Below are positions 4,970-16,256 of a DNA stretch of 64,000 bases, piece after piece. Location: NCBI GenBank assembly GCA_020536535.1, contig JAHLWZ010000843.1:16792-80791 (forward strand), written 5' to 3'. The notes under the pieces were generated by a model. The model worked only from the letters and a program-made list of their open reading frames with translations, was not told the origin of the DNA and made no database searches. This DNA comes from Pelomyxa schiedti. Its lineage: Eukaryota; Protista; Evosea. Numbering within the stretch: the stretch's first letter is position 1; each line of letters begins with the position of its first letter. The translations under genes and the position numbers were made by a program.

Positions 4970-7900
4970 CTACGACTGTAACATTTTGTTTACGATCCAG
5001 TCCAGTCCCTTTTTTCGGATGCAGTATATTAGAACATTACCAAATGAAAGGTGTGGAGATGAACCTCATATAGTCCATCACCAGAAGTAGCACAACAGGC
5101 CTGGACAAACCACTTCCTTGTCCTTATGTGGTGCAGACCAAGTTGGTCAGTTAGTTCGCCTACCGGCATGGCAGCCGGCAAATCTTGTTTGTTTGCAAAC
5201 ACAAGCACAACGGCATCGCGGAGTTCATCCTCGGACAGCATTTTCTGAAGCTCTTCGCTGGTTTCTCCTATGCGTTCCCTGTCATTCGAGTCTACAACGT
5301 ACATAAGACCCTGGGTGTTTTGGAAGTACTAATGAAAGTGAGTGAGAGAAAGAGTGTGAATGTTGGGGTTGTTTAGTGTAACCAAGTGAGTGTTCATACA
5401 TGTCTCCATAGGGGTCTAATTTTGTCTTCTATGGTGAATTAGTTGAGAACATAGTCAAAGTCGTATTGGAGCAAGTCAAGTTCTTACCGCCTCCAGTATC
5501 CCACACTGTAAGGTTGACGTTTTTGTAAGTTACTGTCTCAACATTGAATCCAATGGTAGGTACTACAATGAACAAAGTGCGTTAGAATCAAACCTGTTTT
5601 TGGCGCTCGGGATAGAACTTACTGGTGGTAACAATTTCACCAAGTTTAAGCTATCGAAGACTTAGGTGAGGGAAAATGATGATGTGGTCAACATACTTTA
5701 TACAGAATAGTCGTCTTTCCTGCAGCATCTAAACCTGAGGGTGAATTGAGCAAAGGAAACAGTTGAAGGTATGGTTTATAGGTACGCATACCAACCATCA
5801 ACAAGCGGAATTCTTTCCTTTTCGGTAACCATCCTTGAACAGTTGTGAACGTGACTGAGGCCGCTCGCTGAAGGAGTGAGGGCCTTCGAGCATCTTCTTC
5901 ATCCCGAGCTCTCAGTCTTTTAGCGAACTGGTGAGAGTGTGGCCAAATATGGAAGGAAGCTACGACCTTTCGTAATAAGTGTGAGTGACGGGATGGTTCA
6001 TAAGATATCGAAGTTTCCAGATCTCTTGCCCTGCCAAGCTGCTCGTTCCAGAGGCTCTGGTTTATGTTAAGTGGTATTTTTTTCACTTTGAGAATGTACA
6101 GGGTCTCTGGAATCAACGTTTTGGCAATTTTGCATATTCGTCGGTTTGGAGAACCAAGTTCCGTAGCCTCCCAGTCATAGGCGGGGGATACCCTCACATC
6201 CCTCAACGTCTTAGATTGAGCTGGGGAAAAAAAGGAATACCTGGTGTATAGCACCCTCCATAATTCATTTGAGGAAGAGAGAACTCTGAAAGCACTACTT
6301 GTCCGCCCTATGGATATGAGGTCCTAAAACTGGGATGAAAACTGGCAATGATCCATCAAAATTCAAACTTTGGCACTCAAGTACAGAAGAATCTCATGAA
6401 GAACTTCACGAGGAAAATTCTTGAGGGTTCCAAAGATAGATTGTTGCTCCTGAGATGGCTTATTCATCTGACTGGAACCACCTGATATTGCCGCTGTATG
6501 CAACCACCCACAAGAGACCTGAAAGTAGTTATTTGGGAAAATTGACGGAGTCCTGCATACCGCTTTAATATTCGTGTTAGACATCGTAAACGCTTCGACA
6601 AGCGTAGGTGCAATATACTCTTGTTTCAAAAATTGACCACACTGTCCATTTTTACTTGAACCAAAAGTGTATCTGTCTTTATGTTAAAAAGAAAATGAGA
6701 AACTGTTCTCAACTTGCATTTTTCCAGAACTTGTAACTATGGCACTATGTGCCGCACTAAATGCTCCATTTGCTGACATGGCGATAACTCTATCACCTCG
6801 TGTGCACAGTTCAACATTGAAGGAGTCAATAGGCCTGCAAAAATATGATTCCCAGTATTATCTTCCATCGCCCATACGTGGGAACCAGAATATTTTGATC
6901 GACGGTGTGGCCGCACTGGCTCCTTCTCCCCATTGATAACACTGTATTATGTAACCCCTCAGTACTTGAAGTTGGCACAGTAGCGAGCAGTGTGTGATTG
7001 TCACCACATGCCACAATTTCAATTGCTGGAGTCCCTGTTGGCAAAGGAACTGGTTGTGGAGTCGTTCTATCAATGACATCGCCAAGCCCAAGCTGGCCAA
7101 ACCTAAGAAAACGAGTGAGATCGTTAGCAGGAGATCGCTTTCGTACCTATTTGAACCACAAGTAAATACGGTACCAGTTTCCGTCATATATGCAACATGT
7201 TGACCACCGCAAGACACTTTCCTGATTGGTTGCGTGAGTTTAACTTGCTGGGGATTCTCTCTATCCTATTGGAAGAGTTATTAACAGAGAAACAAGATTT
7301 TATCCATACTTTTGTGTCACCCAACCCAAGCTGCCCTTTAGAATTAGTGCCCCATGAGAAAGCACTACCATCAGAACAGATAACTACAGAAAAGGCACCA
7401 CCAGCACTAATGTGAGAAGGTCTCGAAAGAGATTCCAGTGGAGTATGAAGTGCCTGCACCACAGTTGGTGCTAGTGACTTGCCACATATTTCACCCCACA
7501 TCCACACATCACAGACGGGAGAAGCTTCAAGTGCGAGGCAGTGCATGCCACCACAAGCAATTTCAGCAATTACGTGGCCGTACAATCTAATAAGAAATAA
7601 TTAAAATTCCCATGGAAGTTATATTGTCACATAAATAAGAGCCTAATACACACCCAACAACCGGGCGAGGGATTGGCTTCTCCTGACAAGCCCAAGGCGT
7701 TGCACCCACCATATTATTGGTAGTGGCAGTAGCAGTAGCAGCAGAATTTGTAGCAGCACCTTTAGGCGGTGCTCCCTTTGCTGGGGTAGCGCCCTTGGCT
7801 GTTGCAGGATTGGTTTTTGATGCAGTGACGGCGGAGGGATTTGGGGTGGGAGTGGATACAGGTGTAGTTGTTCCACTGCCGCCTCCGCAGGAGTATACTT

Positions 7901-8182
7901 CCCCTGTGGAAGACAGAATCAAGGTGACTGCACCACCACAGGAAACAGACTTAGCATTAACTCTGGAACCAAAAAGTGTAGCCACAAATGCTGGGCACTG
8001 TCTAAAAGCAAAAAAATGTTAATTTATTGTTTGCTTTTAAAAAAAGGCAAAACAAACATAGGTCCCTATGACCTTTCGATGGAATCACCGTGGCCAAGTT
8101 GGCCGTGGGAGGCAACGCCCCACGTGTAGACGAGGCCCGCCGGCATTATGGGAGCCGGACGAGATTCAGGTGCTGAAGTCAT
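4970..8182 (-). CDS. RCC1-repeat, F-box and C-terminal Arf GTPase fusion protein, multi-exon
   Basis: RCC1 blades ([62 protein letters not shown]); F-box [19 protein letters not shown]|[11 protein letters not shown]; Arf motifs [42 protein letters not shown]; stop TAG 4972-4970. Confidence 0.85.
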
Positions 8183-8390
8183 TATAGTGTGAGTCTCGGG
8201 GTCGACATTGGTGGCGAATTTGGTGGTTACCAGCATGCTTCGGTTACGGACTCACAGGTTTTAACCGGTAAACCGTTTTACACAGTGTGTCTCTGGACTT
8301 ATTGCAGAAAGGCTTTGCACAACCAGTATTGAGGGGTTGTTAGTAACACAAAGAGTCGCAAGTTCCCGGGGTAATCTGTGTCAGTACAGA

Positions 8391-11300
8391 ATGGAAAATC
8401 AGATTTGGGCGAATCCAGAACAAAACCCAAAATTACACGCCGCCACGGGGAAGAACGCAAAGAGGAAGAAGGCAGCCGCGAGGGCAGCTGCCGCAAACCG
8501 TGACGAATCCGACGAGAGTTCCTCTGACAACAGCGAAGCCCCAGAGGCCCCCGATTCCCCGAGGAGGGCCACGGGCAAGCCTGAGGACGACCCCGTCTCC
8601 TCCTCTGAGGAAAACGACCAACACGACGAAGGCGCGGGCGCCAGCGCGGCCGCCACCACGAGCAGGGGCAAGGGCGGGCGCGGGAAGAGCCGCGCGGCCC
8701 CCAAGCCCGCCGCGACCCGCACGGGCCCGGCGGCGGCTCCCCCTGCGCAGCCAGCCGCGGCGGCCCCCACTCCGGGCCGCAGGCAGGCACGCCCAGCGCG
8801 CAACCCCCAGCTGGCAGTGATCAGATTCCTGCGAGAGGAATGCAGCCGCCACAGGGCGGAGGCCAGCTCGAGCACCCCCACTGGGCCAAGTGCCACGACT
8901 GGTAGTACTGGTGCTGCTGCTGCTGCTGTTACGACCACTGCTAGTACGACGGCCACGAGCTGCGGGGGAGACGATTATGGGTGCGCGCGGGAGGCGCTTG
9001 AGAAGCTGCGGGAGAAGCACGGGGTGAGGGCCGCCGCCCATAATTCCCACCCGCAGCTGTTTGCCCTCAAGTACGTGCAGCACGAGTGCGCCCCTGAGAG
9101 ACTGGCGGACCTGAATGGCGTACCAGCTGGATGCAGGGGTCTGGTGCTGAGCCATTCGCGGAATTCCGGGGGTTGCGAGTGGGCCGTTGTTGCCAGGCCC
9201 TTTGACAAGTTTCTCAATTATGGGGAACCTTTGGTAATTGCATCTTTGTGTTGTTTCTGTTTAATCTCTTGCTGGTTCTGGTTTTATTTCTTTGGTATTC
9301 GAAAACCCTAAACAAAACAAAAAGGCTCCAGAGATGGATTGGGGTAAATGCAAGATATATGAAAAAATTGATGGAACTCTGTGCATTTTATACTTCTACA
9401 ATGGTGAATGGATAATGAGTACAGGCGGAAGTGCTGATGGAATGGGCCAAGTCAAGTCTGCTAGTGAGAACAATGGTCACCCAATTATTTCTGTCCCACC
9501 TTTTTTTTTAGGTACTTTGACTTTCTGTGATCTTTTTTGGAGAATATTTAAGAAAAGTGGTTACTCTACACCCTCATCACCAGAGGCAATTAATTACACT
9601 TTCATGTTTGAACTCGTCTCCCCTCTCAATCGGGTACTCATACCATATGACACTGAGGCTCTTTATCTACTTGGAGCTAGGTCGATTCAAACTGGTTCCG
9701 AACTCGATCCGGCGCAGGCAAGCAGATTAGCTGGTGTTCCCTACACATTGTGTCCACTGAGGGAAGGTCTATGCACCTACGAGCAGGTGATACATGCTCT
9801 TAGAATGTGTGACCCACTCAAGCATGAGGGGTTTGTAGCAGTTGATTACACACGTGGTATCAGGGTCAAAGTAAAACACCCTGCATATGTATGCATGCAT
9901 CATGCACTGGGTGACAAGCACTGGGGTGCTGATAGATTAATAGAGATTGTGAGAAGTGCTGAAGTGGGTGAAGTTCTGGCATACTTCCCTGAACTGAAAG
10001 GAAGGATTGAGGAAATGGCTGACATCTATTCTAAAATAGAGCAGAAAATGACAACAGAATGGGAAGCCTGCAAGTCTATAGATAGGAAGAAATTTCAGAT
10101 ATTTTTGTGCAATACTCCATTCCCTGATACTATGGAAGCACTACGAAGCGGGAAATGTACCTCAGTTCGTGATTTCCTTGCCAGTGTTGAGATAAAGAAA
10201 CTTCGAGAGATGTTTGGTATCTCTTCCGGGAAAGAAAAAGACAAAAGAAAACGAAATAAGCGGGGGAAGGCACAAGAGAACGAGACCAACTTGGAGAATG
10301 GAACAAGTGAAGCAAACGAGCCTCTCGATCGGCTCGAGGAAATACATCCTCAATATAGGATAGTCCATGGCTCAGAGGACTCTGTGGATCTCGACGTAGT
10401 TTACATTGTTGCAAATATGCCCTCAGTAGCTCAGTGTCACGCTTTTTGCAACGCAGGGGCAAGTTCAAGCCCAGTAGAAAACCGAAACATCGCAACCGTG
10501 TCAAATGGAGTCATATCAAAGTGTCTAAAGGGGCTACCAGATGAACTAAACAATGCCATTAGAAGAACTTTCAAGCTCCACGTAGAAAACAATTCCCTAG
10601 TGTGCCCAATTCTTAGGAATACAGGCAGAGATATCAATGGGAAAGCTAGAGTATCCCTGCAGTCCATCCTTGGGTTACTAATACACAACACAGATGCAGA
10701 AACTAGAGCAGGTAGGCATTTTCTGACACTTCTCAGAAATTAACTTGGAAAAGTAATCGAATCGGCTGTGAAAAGTGCCCTCCACTCGCAGGATATACAA
10801 TCCATGGCTAATGCACTTAAGACCATTACTCTTCAAGCAGTTATCCCTGTACTCGGAGTTGAAGAACGCAAGCGGATTGCCTTTCAGGTTGGACAACTAC
10901 TTGTAAGTTTCACTTGCATTCATTTTTAATTAATTTAAAACAGCTAGGCCTTGATTCAAAATGTCGAACTTTACACAAAGAAGGAAATCAGTGATTACTT
11001 CCCTGAAACTCGCCCATTGTTGTATCGAAAGCCGGTGCTATCTCCAGAAGAAAGTGACCTGTTCATCCAGTCGCTGTAAGTTCTTAATGGCATTTAATGA
11101 ATATTCACTCTACTAGTCTCCGATTATGTAATTCCATTTCATCTCGTAATACGACAGTTCCTCTGCAAATTCCTCCAGAATGCTTCGCCCTTCCCAAACC
11201 CATTGAGTCACTTTGTATATTTGACTTTGATGCCACCCTTTTTGCTTCTCCTTCTCCAAATCCCTCTCTGTGGACTGAGTCGAGCCTGCGAATCTTGAAC

Positions 11301-12499
11301 TCAACGTGGGTGTGTATCTGCTCACCTCATTTCAAGAAGGAATAACATTGTGAAGGAAGAAGGAGGCCTTAATTGGTTTGGTTCTGCTGAGTCATTAAAT
11401 CCTCCTTATGTACCGCAACTGGCTCCTGAGTCTTTTTGGACTGCCTCTCTTGTTTGTGCTCATGACTGTTTTTAATAATTCTAACACTACTTGAAAGGTC
11501 ACCAGATTTAAAGCGATCTCTGGGTTGACAGGAAAAGTCCTCCTCACTGGCCGCACACAAATGCACTCTGCACGACTCCTAGACCTCCTTTCACAACAAG
11601 GCCTTCAATTTGATTTGGTGATTGTGCGCGAGCTCCAACGCGCACCTGGTCACCAATCAGGCTTATCTGATTGCCTTCGCACAGTAATTGGGTCTTGGTG
11701 CATGCCCTCTCTTCGATTCAAACAGGAGGCAATTAAGCATCTGCTACAGGCCAATCCACATGTTCACACTATCGAGCTTTGGGATGATAATGAAGCACAG
11801 ATGACTGAAATAGCCAAGCACGCAACACTGTTTAGTTCACCAGGAACGACCACTTCTTCACACCTTGTGGTACCCCACAGAACGATTCTGTCCCAAACTG
11901 CGGAACGCGACCTCGTATCGCGACTAATTGCCAGTTCTCCTAACAAATTCTCGCTCCATGAAACTACCTCCTACGTTGCAGCCGTACTGAACCCAGCCAG
12001 CAAAGAGAGGTTACTTTCAGCCATAACCATTCCAGAAGGCTGGACAATTCATGCCACGCACATGACTATTCACCTCGGTCCCGTGCGAAACAAACCCTCA
12101 CGCGAATCCAAACCCAAAGCCAACCCCAAAGGTGCCAACAAAAAATCCGGCAAAACCTCAAAGGCAAACAAAAGGGGACCAGATAGCACAAATTCCGACG
12201 AAGAGGACAACAACAATTCCACTGAATCAGTGCACTACAAACTAGGAGAGCAAATGGAAATAATAGCTACTGCAGTGGGAAGAACAGCCAAGGCTCTTGC
12301 TGTCAAAGTGGAGGGAGTTCCAACAAGCAGGAGATTGTGTGACACCGGTGGGGTACCACACGTCACAATTGCAACTAACACTGCTGGAGGCAAGCCAAAG
12401 GACAGCAAGGAGATTCACGCGTGGGAACCTCTTGCCGCTCCCATAACCCTCACCGGCCTAGTCACCGCTGTGCAACAGTTAAGCCTCACAGCGACGTGA
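8391..12499 (+). CDS. Multidomain RNA repair protein: Rnl1-type RNA ligase, nucleotidyltransferase-like domain, HAD phosphatase, 2H phosphodiesterase
   Basis: Ligase: ARPFDKFLNYGE, motif I EKIDG (K at 9364), FELVSPLNRV, motif IV EGFV, motif V VKVK. GSEDSVDLDVV at 10369. HAD DFDATLF (11220), LTGR, ELWDD. 2H motifs HMT (12059) and HVT (12359). Short GT-AG introns join the ORF pieces. Confidence 0.85.
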
Positions 12500-12658: not shown

Positions 12659-13586
12659 ATGGGAAACGGACCGTCGAAAGCAGAGCTCGAGGAGCTTCAT
12701 AGACAGTTTGGAAGTACCTTTTCATAAGCCTCTTTGAAACAACAAAATTGCCCACCTTTCATACACATAACCGAAACCGTTTGCAAGTCGATTGAGAATT
12801 AAAACGCAACAACGATGCGGCCATTGACTCGACCCATAAGTTAGCATCGAGGACCTCAAGACACACGCCAAGGCGTTCAGAGAGGTCAATGGCGCGATGA
12901 CATTGGCAGACTTTAGGAGATTCTCAATGGAGTCGTCGACGCAGCTACCACCAGGAGTCATTGAGAAGATATTTTTCGCTTTTGACAGGAACAGAGACGG
13001 GTTTGTTTCTGCCACCCCCCCCTTTTTTTTCCCCTTTTGCTCATTGGGACCAAAAGGAGAATAGATGTCAGAGAGTATTTGATGATGATATCCTTAACTA
13101 GAGGAGGAACTCTTGGTAAGTCCAAATAATTGTTATAGCACAAAGTGTAACAGTGGGGGGGAAAAAAAAATTCCAGATGAGAAACTACAGGGTAAAAAAA
13201 TGTGCTGATGATACGTTCCATTCATTGTATTTCACAGCTTCATTTGATATCTTTGATTCCAACAGAGATGGGAAACTCGAGAAGTATGAAGTCCGAAGTC
13301 TACTTGAAGCCGCCAACGTCACAGTATCCTCCGCCCCTTAATTCCTTCTCTACTTAATGAATATTAGTATGCCGGTTCTATAAGCCTTGGACTTACGCCA
13401 CAGATGGAAGCTCACGTAAATGATCTTGTTGAACAAACCTTTGAATTGTCAGATACCAATCATGTAGGTGATTCCATAATTTTTTTCAATTCCAACATGA
13501 AACAGGACGGTTTTATTGATAGGGAAGAATTTGTCCACGCCTTCAAGACACACCCCAAAGTACTTGAATTTTTCAAGCAGTTATGA
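12659..13586 (+). CDS. Neuronal calcium sensor/calcineurin B-like EF-hand protein with probable N-myristoylation
   Basis: Starts MGNGPSK (MGxxxS/K); EF loops FDRNRDG..DVREY, FDSNRDGKLEKYEV and DTNH|DGFIDREEF. Confidence 0.85.
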
Positions 13587-13679
13587 GACTCTAGCTCTCT
13601 ATACAAGTAATATAAAACACTATCCTATAAAATAGTTCTTTCCTCGAATCCCATCACTTTCTCATTCAACACCAATAAT

Positions 13680-16256
13680 CACTCAAGACTTCCATGTTCG
13701 GAGGTTGGTCGTGTCTTGTGAAATGTTCCTTAGGCTCTGTGCCACTATCGAATTTCACTTTGTGGCTCTTCTTAGAATATAATGACGATTTTAATTCATG
13801 CTAAGTTTTGGATTGTACACAATAGGGAAAGAAGCCAACCAGTCTGCCTTTGTGGGGATGTCAGCTCTTTTTTCTCTGGGCTGTGTCTGTTTGGTTTTGT
13901 CTGGGGGAGGTGGTTTGTAGGGAGGGTGTTGTTGATGGGGTTGGGGTAGCGGCTGTTGGGTTCGGCAAGGCCGGTGAGGGTGCTGCTGGGACGGTGGAGG
14001 GAGTGGCAGACGAGGGAGAGGATGTGGATGGTGTGCTTTGTTTTTGGAAGCAGCTGTCGCAAACCCGCTGCTTGAAGGTCTCCGAGGGAAGCATCAATTT
14101 GCTTTTGGAACATCCACCACATACGACTTTCCCACATAGCCTGCAGTGGTGCTGTTTTCCGCGATGTAAGGGAAAGAACATGAAGAGAATGTGGAACATG
14201 CCCTTCTATTGAGTATGCCAAAGTCAGTATCACATATCACGCAGTTACGTGTTTCCCCGTCGGGCTGATAGCGGTTTCTTCTTGTAAAAACGGAGAGGGG
14301 TTACTAACCTGCCACACAGGGGCCTCAAAAGACGACCCCTGATCGTTTGCTGGCTCCGCAATAACAGTGCCAGAACTGTCTTTTATAAATCGTTTCTTTT
14401 TAGATTTGATCTTTTCATTCTTGAGTTAATGTAAATTCTAATGATTCTGTACAAACATCTTTCACAGCGTTTTGGAGGTCCGTAACCCAGGAGTTTTTCT
14501 CTTCAGGGGTTTCTGTATAGGCAACAAATGATTTCTTTGCTGAGGCAATCTTGTGGACCATCAGCAAGGCACTGTCTGTGTGGGAGTACAGACCGAAAAA
14601 GCGTTTTGCAGTTTATCAGTATCAGCAATATCTTCGATATGCTTTACTTCCTCGAGTTGTAGAACTACTTGTCTTCCACCGTCATATATCAGAATATCAT
14701 TAAACAGGAAGAAGGTCCGTTTTTTGTCTGTTTTGCGGCACCTCTTCCATATTTGGCCTTCTCGTAAAAACACCCGATGTGGTTCCACAAGCTAGTAAAA
14801 TAAGTTTACTTTACATCACCAAAATTGTGATGACGCACATTGAACCCAGAGAGAGGAGAACTGAGTTTCTGTTGAATTTCAAGTAATTTGCGGCCATTTT
14901 CTTGTAGCCGGATAGAGTCATTGACCTGAGCTGCTACTTCTTTGAGTTTGTTAGTCGCACCCACGAGATTGCCATAGTCTGGGTGAGTTGGGGGGGTATG
15001 GGAGACAAAATCCTATGCATTTTGGTTGGAAAGCGTTCCAAATTAAGAAGGGAAGATAAACCAGACACCTCAAGTAGAAGTTTATATCTGGGCAGTCGTT
15101 GTACTGGCAAAATCAAAAAAGAGGGTAAATTAAGGCCTTTGCATTTCGGTTCAGTGAGCTTATCCTTACAAAATGAGTTTTTTTGGGGGAAACTCGGTTG
15201 CTGGTACTTGGAGAAATTTGGTAAAAAAGACATTTTTCTCTAAATCGTCCAGAGTGGAAAAGCAGTTATTGTAATTGCATGCATAAGTACTGTATAACTT
15301 CAGGAAGGGAATCTGACAAAGAAAGTAAACACTAATTAGATGAGTGTTAGGAAATACAAATTCAAGGAATTTGTCCCCAATTAAAGTTGTGGGTGTCCAT
15401 TCGTCCATCCTTTCCTCCAACCCAGCCAATAACAAGCAATTTAACTTACAAATAAAAGTTAGAAAATAAGTACAACTCTGAAGCAAGTCACCTGCCAAAT
15501 TTCTTGTATATTAGAGAATAAGGCATAAAGTTTGTCTGGAGGTATCTGATCAGATTTCATCAGTGGCTTGAGAAACACCTTCTCAACTATTAGCAGATAA
15601 GTTGGCACATATTAAAATGCAAACCTCTACGCAAACGTGTATCTGCTCAACATATGTCCTCTCAGTGGTAAGTATTTCTTTTGCAATGTGGTTTCGCTTG
15701 TCGTCCGGGGTGCTGTTTTTGTTAGTCACTGCTGCAGAAACCGGTTTTAGCTCTTCGTGGATCGGGTGTTGGGGCTTAAACAGCATTGTATTCCGGCTAT
15801 ACATGCTATTGCGTGGAAGTGATGTTGTCCCAAGAACAGACTTTCTGACCTGAAATAAAATGAACAAGTGGAGATTGTGGGCGATTGGCGTACGTCGGCC
15901 CCACTGTTCGCAGAGTTTGCGCTGGTGCCATTGGCCGTTTGCCCACCGTTACTTCCGGGGGTTGTTCCGGAAGCGTATAGCCCCTGATGGGGCAGTGAGG
16001 TTGCCTTTGGCAAAAACCCTGATGTGTTTGGTAGAGGTACAACAGGACCAGTAACGGCCGATTTGCTGCGTGTCAGCTTAGCACTAGCAGATGTATTGGT
16101 GTTGGCGTTTGTGTTTGTGTTAGCGCCGTTTGCTGTGGTTGAAGACTGGGAGAGATTCGAAGAAGTGCTCGTAGCGGCACCACTAGCCGGCACACTGGCA
16201 CGTTGCACAGATCCCGAAGCACCAAGAGACGATGACGACGACGTTTTGTGCAGCAT
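13680..16256 (-). CDS. FGD-like RhoGEF (DH-PH-FYVE); 3' end approximate
   Basis: DH: KRNHIAKEILTTERTYV, PFLKLYSTY, LILPVQRLPRYKLLL; PH: FLREGQIWKRCRK..FFLFNDILIY; FYVE: HHCRLCGKVVCGGCS..RVCDSC. Confidence 0.9.

Follow-up and report, generated by a model that had tools for sequence, protein, structure and literature searches.

A gene of Pelomyxa schiedti is predicted to encode a 1249-aa protein in which an Rnl1-type RNA ligase, a Pol-beta-fold nucleotidyltransferase (NTase), a HAD phosphatase and a 2H phosphoesterase follow one another. We lean slightly towards the reading, drawn from sequence, that this one polypeptide would repair broken RNA, probably tRNA, by opening a cyclic phosphate, removing the phosphate, adding a nucleotide and sealing the ends. 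The four-domain set was found only in Pelomyxa; multidomain RNA repair proteins as such are known. A second copy of the layout was absent among the matches listed in a homology search (the best 150 of 4349), and a HAD-2H query against long proteins retrieved only itself (7990 candidates scored); neither search would see a gene that introns break up in metagenome gene calls. The initial annotation had not recognised this domain set, and these searches agree. In the literature searched, which comprised few subscription papers and neither supplements nor Burroughs and Aravind 2016, neither the NTase family nor the four-domain architecture is described.

Gene structure and the NTase-HAD junction

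The gene occupies 8391..12499 (+) of the window, the 64,000-nt stretch of DNA analysed here. Its eight exons (8391-9233, 9325-9463, 9512-10711, 10754-10902, 10948-11075, 11117-11309, 11356-11451 and 11498-12499, all +) join into a frame running from ATG 8391 to TGA 12499, 1249 aa without an internal stop (three frames read). The seven introns (9234-9324, 9464-9511, 10712-10753, 10903-10947, 11076-11116, 11310-11355 and 11452-11497, +) are GT-AG introns of 41-91 nt and 24-39% GC, and they keep the domains in frame as had been proposed. The boundaries of intron 2 are the least certain, since it is in frame and free of stops. The gene, with the four domains and motifs first named from the letters, is real: its structure is identical to the NCBI model, and the product equals letter for letter the P. 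schiedti protein KAH3746197.1 (P0001), named 2'-5' RNA ligase. Its intron density is in line with the 7.43 introns per gene given for the P. schiedti genome in the accessible part of PMC8887013.

Contigs from a single-cell RNA run span 9853-10231, 10278-10838, 11576-12213 and 12348-12498. Intron 3 (10712-10753) is removed in the second of these. RNA cover is absent at the other six introns, over exons 1-2 and over 10839-11575, which is no argument against splicing there. Two DNA assemblies are continuous through the locus; all four runs belong to one study. Contamination was ruled out by these two assemblies, the introns and the eukaryotic neighbours, namely an RCC1-repeat gene (about 5700-8200, -), an EF-hand calcium-sensor-like gene (12659-13589, +) and a FYVE-RhoGEF gene (13800-15200, -). 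Runs X1/X4 carry other alleles at 9925, 10302, 11181, 12178, 12295, 12316 and 12431, of which three are silent, three are missense and one inserts a codon in frame; the catalytic residues are untouched. Exon 1 (8391-9233) is 66% GC with a GC3 of 0.72, and the other exons are 41-50% GC. The N-terminal arm (aa 1-194; 8391..8972, +) is low-complexity and rich in Ala, Ser, Pro and Arg, with a basic stretch near its start; it is likely disordered.

The fusion of NTase to HAD depends on splicing of intron 5 (11076..11116, +; GTAAGT...CTAG), within which the upstream frame meets a stop and an ATG (11097) lies in frame with HAD. As RNA cover is lacking at this junction (no contig over 10839-11575), a two-gene reading keeps some weight: gene prediction would have merged neighbours, a ligase-NTase gene ending in TAA near 11080 and a HAD-2H gene starting from ATG 11097. 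We regard this as quite improbable. Without splicing the upstream frame does terminate there, with the in-frame ATG next, and the relatives P0003-P0007 terminate after the NTase; yet the donor, the acceptor, the 41-nt length and the AT-rich composition of intron 5 resemble those of the other introns, the two putative genes would lie only about 16 nt apart, and the NCBI model joins both halves. The spliced tail also lengthens the match to the last helix of the NTase family, a weak effect of 1.6 bits above the mean of 300 random tails (297 beaten, 3 equal to it).

Ligase, phosphatase and phosphoesterase domains

The ligase with its C-terminal helical part (aa 195-565; 8973..10224, +; introns 1-2 inside) is an Rnl1-type ATP-dependent RNA ligase, as first annotated. 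RNA_lig_T4_1 (PF09511) scores 43.1 bits, above the Pfam cut-off, phrog_562 matches at 2e-28, and the sole PDB sequence match is T4 Rnl1 (2c5u, E 3e-4). TIGR02308 reaches 6e-12 yet only 45.3 bits against a cut-off of 242, so that the domain falls outside the T4 RnlA equivalog. The N-terminal Arg/Lys-Phe of Rnl1 enzymes (R249, K273, F274), the motif I lysine (K295 in KIDG, 9364-9366) and motifs III (E361, FELV), IV (E433, EGFV) and V (K447/K449, KVK) are present, and all these residues are kept across 146 relatives. K295 is the predicted site of adenylylation. What R54, K75 and the ligase motifs do is covered in the accessible part of PMC6379707. T314 occupies a column, set by one pairwise T4 alignment, that presumably corresponds to motif Ia, since we take the T4 lysine aligned there to be that motif. 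Because Thr or Ser stands in this column in 146/146 relatives, the change is, judged from the alignment, a subfamily trait and not decay.

A query consisting of the ligase and half of the NTase gave 4349 matches (E <=0.001) among 1.84 billion representatives. Among the best 150 of the 4349, the top matches (P0003-P0007) are ligase-NTase fusions; P0007 is AMSG_08277 of Thecamonas trahens, which shares this fusion and lacks HAD and 2H. In a FastTree phylogeny of 167 ligases (3 listed proteins excluded beforehand, 1 removed for gaps), Pelomyxa and Thecamonas are among nine ligases forming one clade (support 0.992), and the NTases of the same nine proteins likewise form one clade (support 0.994). 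The lateral acquisition suggested in the initial annotation therefore needs restating: the ligase-NTase half is common to Thecamonas and other proteins in one clade, and its transfer or fusion is not peculiar to Pelomyxa. The trees carry SH-like support and a midpoint root, with T4 Rnl1 and Trl1 left out as outgroup, and for this reason no donor lineage is claimed. A prokaryotic or phage origin of the ligase is plausible. Identity between named phage ligases and members of the subfamily does not exceed about 35%. LAGLIDADG inteins occur in the RNA ligases P0111, P0126 and L007:1903-3870.

The HAD phosphatase (aa 848-1065; 11199..11944, +; introns 6-7 inside) belongs to Swiss-army-knife family 1. 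HAD_SAK_1 (PF10307) scores 62.2 bits, above its cut-off (7e-17; profile 1-200 of 203), and the DxD, T, K and DD motifs are present as D856/D858 (DFDAT), T933, K991 and D1012/D1013, along with LTGR and WDD. The domain matches 200/203 profile positions, against 169 in a standalone phage copy, and a phage HAD profile matches it at 1e-35. A ligase was nearby in 0/120 HAD-selected phage loci.

The C-terminal 2H phosphoesterase (aa 1070-1249; 11957..12496, +) is CNPase/Trl1-CPD-like, with the motifs HMT (H1104 at 12059) and HVT (H1204 at 12359) and a Lys/Asn/Asp-rich insert at about 12086-12229. PF08302 is matched by 23/26 aligned 2H members, the window's own domain reaching merely E 0.09. Its structural model (pLDDT 78) best fits CNPase (Z 11.2, rmsd 3.0, 122 aligned), the next match having Z 6.8; Trl1-CPD was missing from the VIA list for this model and weak in Foldseek, at rank 48. 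A PDB sequence search with the 2H profile gave chance matches only. The family and fold matches uphold the HAD and 2H identities assigned at the outset. A locus scan with the 2H exon and a tblastn search of exon 8 in phages both found nothing. The 2H family is common in large phages. Among 120 pattern-selected viral 2H loci (80 with full flanks), a ligase was found at 23, a kinase at 25 and both at 17. HAD and 2H share a single ORF at 4/120 of these loci, two of which also have a CCA-adding domain; phage proteins joining 2H, a CCA-adding enzyme and HAD_SAK_1 are found at L141 and L163. Kinase-2H fusions stand beside Rnl1 at many other loci.

The nucleotidyltransferase and its genomic neighbours

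The NTase with its helical bundle (aa 605-830; 10342..11147, +; introns 3-5 inside) carries HGSxDSxDxD (GSEDSVDLD, with D620/D622 at 10387-10395), N653 and GxxDExNN (D671/E672). No Pfam, NCBIfam or PADLOC model matches it in P0001 or in standalone homologues, PHROGs gave no match to its first 124 aa, and a PDB sequence search with the NTase profile returned chance matches only. The homologue P0002 (39% identical) was folded instead of the window's own domain (pLDDT 95.6), and this model matched HalB (Z 9.0, rmsd 3.9, 164 aligned), the aminoglycoside NTase ANT (Z 8.5, rmsd 3.8, 171 aligned) and further ANT/AadA, kanamycin NTase and MNT-HEPN-like chains. The matches are middling (Foldseek TM about 0.4), and the enzymes matched have protein tyrosine or antibiotics, rather than RNA, as their substrates. 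The GS...DxD of the Pol-beta superfamily is present on the fold of this homologue, in accord with the NTase-like domain first proposed, and on this model we read the domain as a minimal Pol-beta NTase that carries a helical bundle.

The expected third acid, its position taken from strand order and not from coordinates, is Asn in 103/104 NTase members; the invariant D671/E672 might stand in for the missing carboxylate. The early impression that all catalytic residues are intact thus holds for the named motifs but not for the motif Ia column, where Thr is found, nor for this third acid. Of the 36 best-conserved positions, the Pelomyxa NTase keeps nearly all; Q, R and R deviate at three. The same fold lies inside longer Klosneuvirus, Terrestrivirus and Indivirus proteins (E 1e-10 to 9e-9) and stands alone in Lak phages, phage G (gp208) and SCTP-2. 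In the SCTP-2 phage locus (L002:6223-10213), genes for an AAA ATPase and a metallopeptidase-vWA protein (DUF2201) flank it.

RlaP (PF10127) is likewise a Pol-beta NTase with a helical domain that is associated with RNA ligases. Identity with RlaP was rejected: PF10127 does not match, the profile-comparison probability is 0.13%, and RlaP has three Asp where the third is Asn here. The two also coexist in L048 (4355-9235, -), where one cluster contains a ligase, a kinase, the NTase and a true RlaP, which hints that the job of the NTase differs from that of RlaP.

The context of the NTase was examined at 129 loci, 90 with the NTase and 39 false motif matches serving as controls. An RNA ligase was associated with 17/90 NTase loci: in seven the NTase is followed, in one fusion protein, by an intact Rnl1 ligase from a different lineage, the order opposite to that in Pelomyxa, and in ten a separate ligase gene lies nearby, mostly with a kinase. 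P-loop kinases, mostly kinase-HD, were present in 10/90. The controls, mostly non-phage loci, had neither ligase (0/39) nor kinase (0/39); related NTase loci are redundant and not independent. At the remaining 73/90 loci the available flanks did not contain a ligase of this subfamily, and distant ligases may be missed because the ligase profile fits this subfamily best. On the NTase tree the ligase-linked members are scattered over four separate places. One member adjoins Thg1, and at least 7 tRNA/tmRNA genes occur in 8/39 scanned loci. A single-protein locus scan with P0002 found nothing. The NTase-Rnl1 fusions (L075:5536-7344(-), L077, L081, L082, L096, L101 and L122) lie on metagenome contigs free of introns, and a kinase was not found near them. 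At L036 and L038 the NTase has a tail resembling a decayed ligase start. L042 and L045 show an operon-like run of WYL/WCX regulators, NTase, kinase-HD, Rnl1 and DUF2828/DUF7788, to which L042 adds an ADP-ribosylglycohydrolase.

The locus suggests that a second ligase-tied NTase family, unrelated to RlaP in sequence, is used in eukaryotes. The accessible part of PMC5512222 adds nothing on this family. A stronger proposal is possible, if on balance doubtful: the NTase would found an undescribed family of RNA ligase partners that has a DxD-plus-Asn site and is separate from RlaP, present in jumbo phages, bacteria, giant viruses and protists and fused to Rnl1 twice in opposite orders, and the Pelomyxa protein would be a single-chain heal, fill-in and seal enzyme restoring nucleotides cut by end-trimming ribotoxins. 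The question is directly testable, as the 235-aa standalone phage NTase and the two-domain fusions are easily expressed.

A predicted repair pathway and its alternatives

From the domains, motifs, folds and gene associations described above we infer what each domain does, on which substrate and in what order. The 2',3'-cyclic phosphate would be opened by the CNPase-like 2H domain, leaving a 3'-OH and a 2'-phosphate; the accessible part of PMC9503650 gives the 2H product as carrying a 2' phosphate. The HAD domain would take off the remaining 2'- or 3'-phosphate, the NTase may then extend the freed 3'-OH by one or a few nucleotides, an RlaP-like job, and sealing of the repaired end to a 5'-phosphate would fall to the Rnl1 ligase after adenylylation at K295. 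This chemistry is modelled on what the accessible parts of the sources report for Trl1 (PMC6379707), RlaP (PMC12776372) and a jumbo-phage survey (PMC7824862; PMC9503650). RlaP, which is bacterial, puts 1-2 NMP on an RNA 3'-OH, with gap-filling repair demonstrated in vitro in the accessible part of PMC12776372. The repair role named at the outset is thereby supported, with the activities as predictions, and a use against ribotoxin or viral RNA damage, also proposed there, is a candidate purpose; the term self-contained fails, because a six-sequence kinase profile found no kinase domain in the protein or the 64,000-nt window. Two Walker-A-like strings there both lie within low-complexity linkers. 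As no kinase was found, the 5'-phosphate would come from outside, either already present or made by a separate kinase.

T4 Rnl1 plus Pnkp likewise pairs an Rnl1-type ligase with a HAD phosphatase for end healing; the Pelomyxa protein differs in being one polypeptide without a kinase, with a HAD of family PF10307, an extra 2H and NTase, and T/S at motif Ia. Fungal and plant Trl1 (ligase-kinase-CPD) likewise has an N-terminal Rnl1-like ligase and a C-terminal CPD/CNPase-type 2H with two HxT motifs. The central polynucleotide kinase is missing in Pelomyxa, the NTase and HAD occupying its position, and the 2'-phosphate is predicted to be taken off before sealing, unlike in Trl1. 'Swiss army knife' RNA repair proteins (PF10307), reportedly described by Burroughs and Aravind in 2016, likewise are multidomain RNA-end proteins with HAD_SAK_1, which in Pelomyxa scores above its cut-off; the Pelomyxa domain set was not found elsewhere in the two homology searches.

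One alternative concerns the place of the NTase in this scheme. The ligase, HAD and 2H would still repair RNA, and the NTase would instead AMPylate a protein (the ligase or a ribotoxin), rebuild tRNA 3' ends or make a HalB-like protein-primed oligonucleotide. Its best folds, through the P0002 model, are Hailong HalB, ANT(3'')/ANT(9) or AadA and MNT-HEPN-like chains, with 8-14% identity to HalB and ANT; HalB is tyrosine-primed in the accessible part of PMC13434031, the third Asp is an invariant Asn, RlaP co-occurs in L048, and most standalone copies have no ligase nearby. However, PADLOC did not match the NTase, and the neighbours are RNA repair genes instead: repeated NTase-Rnl1 fusions, in both orders and with different ligase lineages, and kinase-ligase operons containing the NTase suggest a shared RNA substrate. 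We consider this alternative unlikely. A housekeeping enzyme for tRNA-intron splicing or general RNA end processing, replacing RtcB/Trl1 and not serving defence, seems very improbable to us. Trl1 also combines a ligase with a CPD-like 2H, and the gene is transcribed and spliced in the single-cell RNA run; against this, the protein has no kinase, its ligase is not Trl1-like by Pfam, the distribution is patchy, and the closest relatives of each part sit in large-phage and bacterial repair clusters.

Under the favoured heal, fill-in and seal reading, a HAD-2H unit was likely added to a ligase-NTase fusion common to other protists. This suggests that protists took up and recombined phage and bacterial RNA repair parts, possibly directing them against toxins of prey or symbionts. 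Phosphatases accompany the NTase elsewhere too. At L058:4514-6304 and L097:1305-3122(-) an NT5C-like HAD-NTase fusion adjoins a mitochondrial carrier gene, by these sequences another eukaryotic lineage that pairs the NTase with a phosphatase. P0087 and P0046, which lie on contigs of equal length (58951) and are probably parts of a single gene, contain a ligase, the NTase and two repeats of a different HAD-like type, to all appearances a parallel gain of phosphatase domains.
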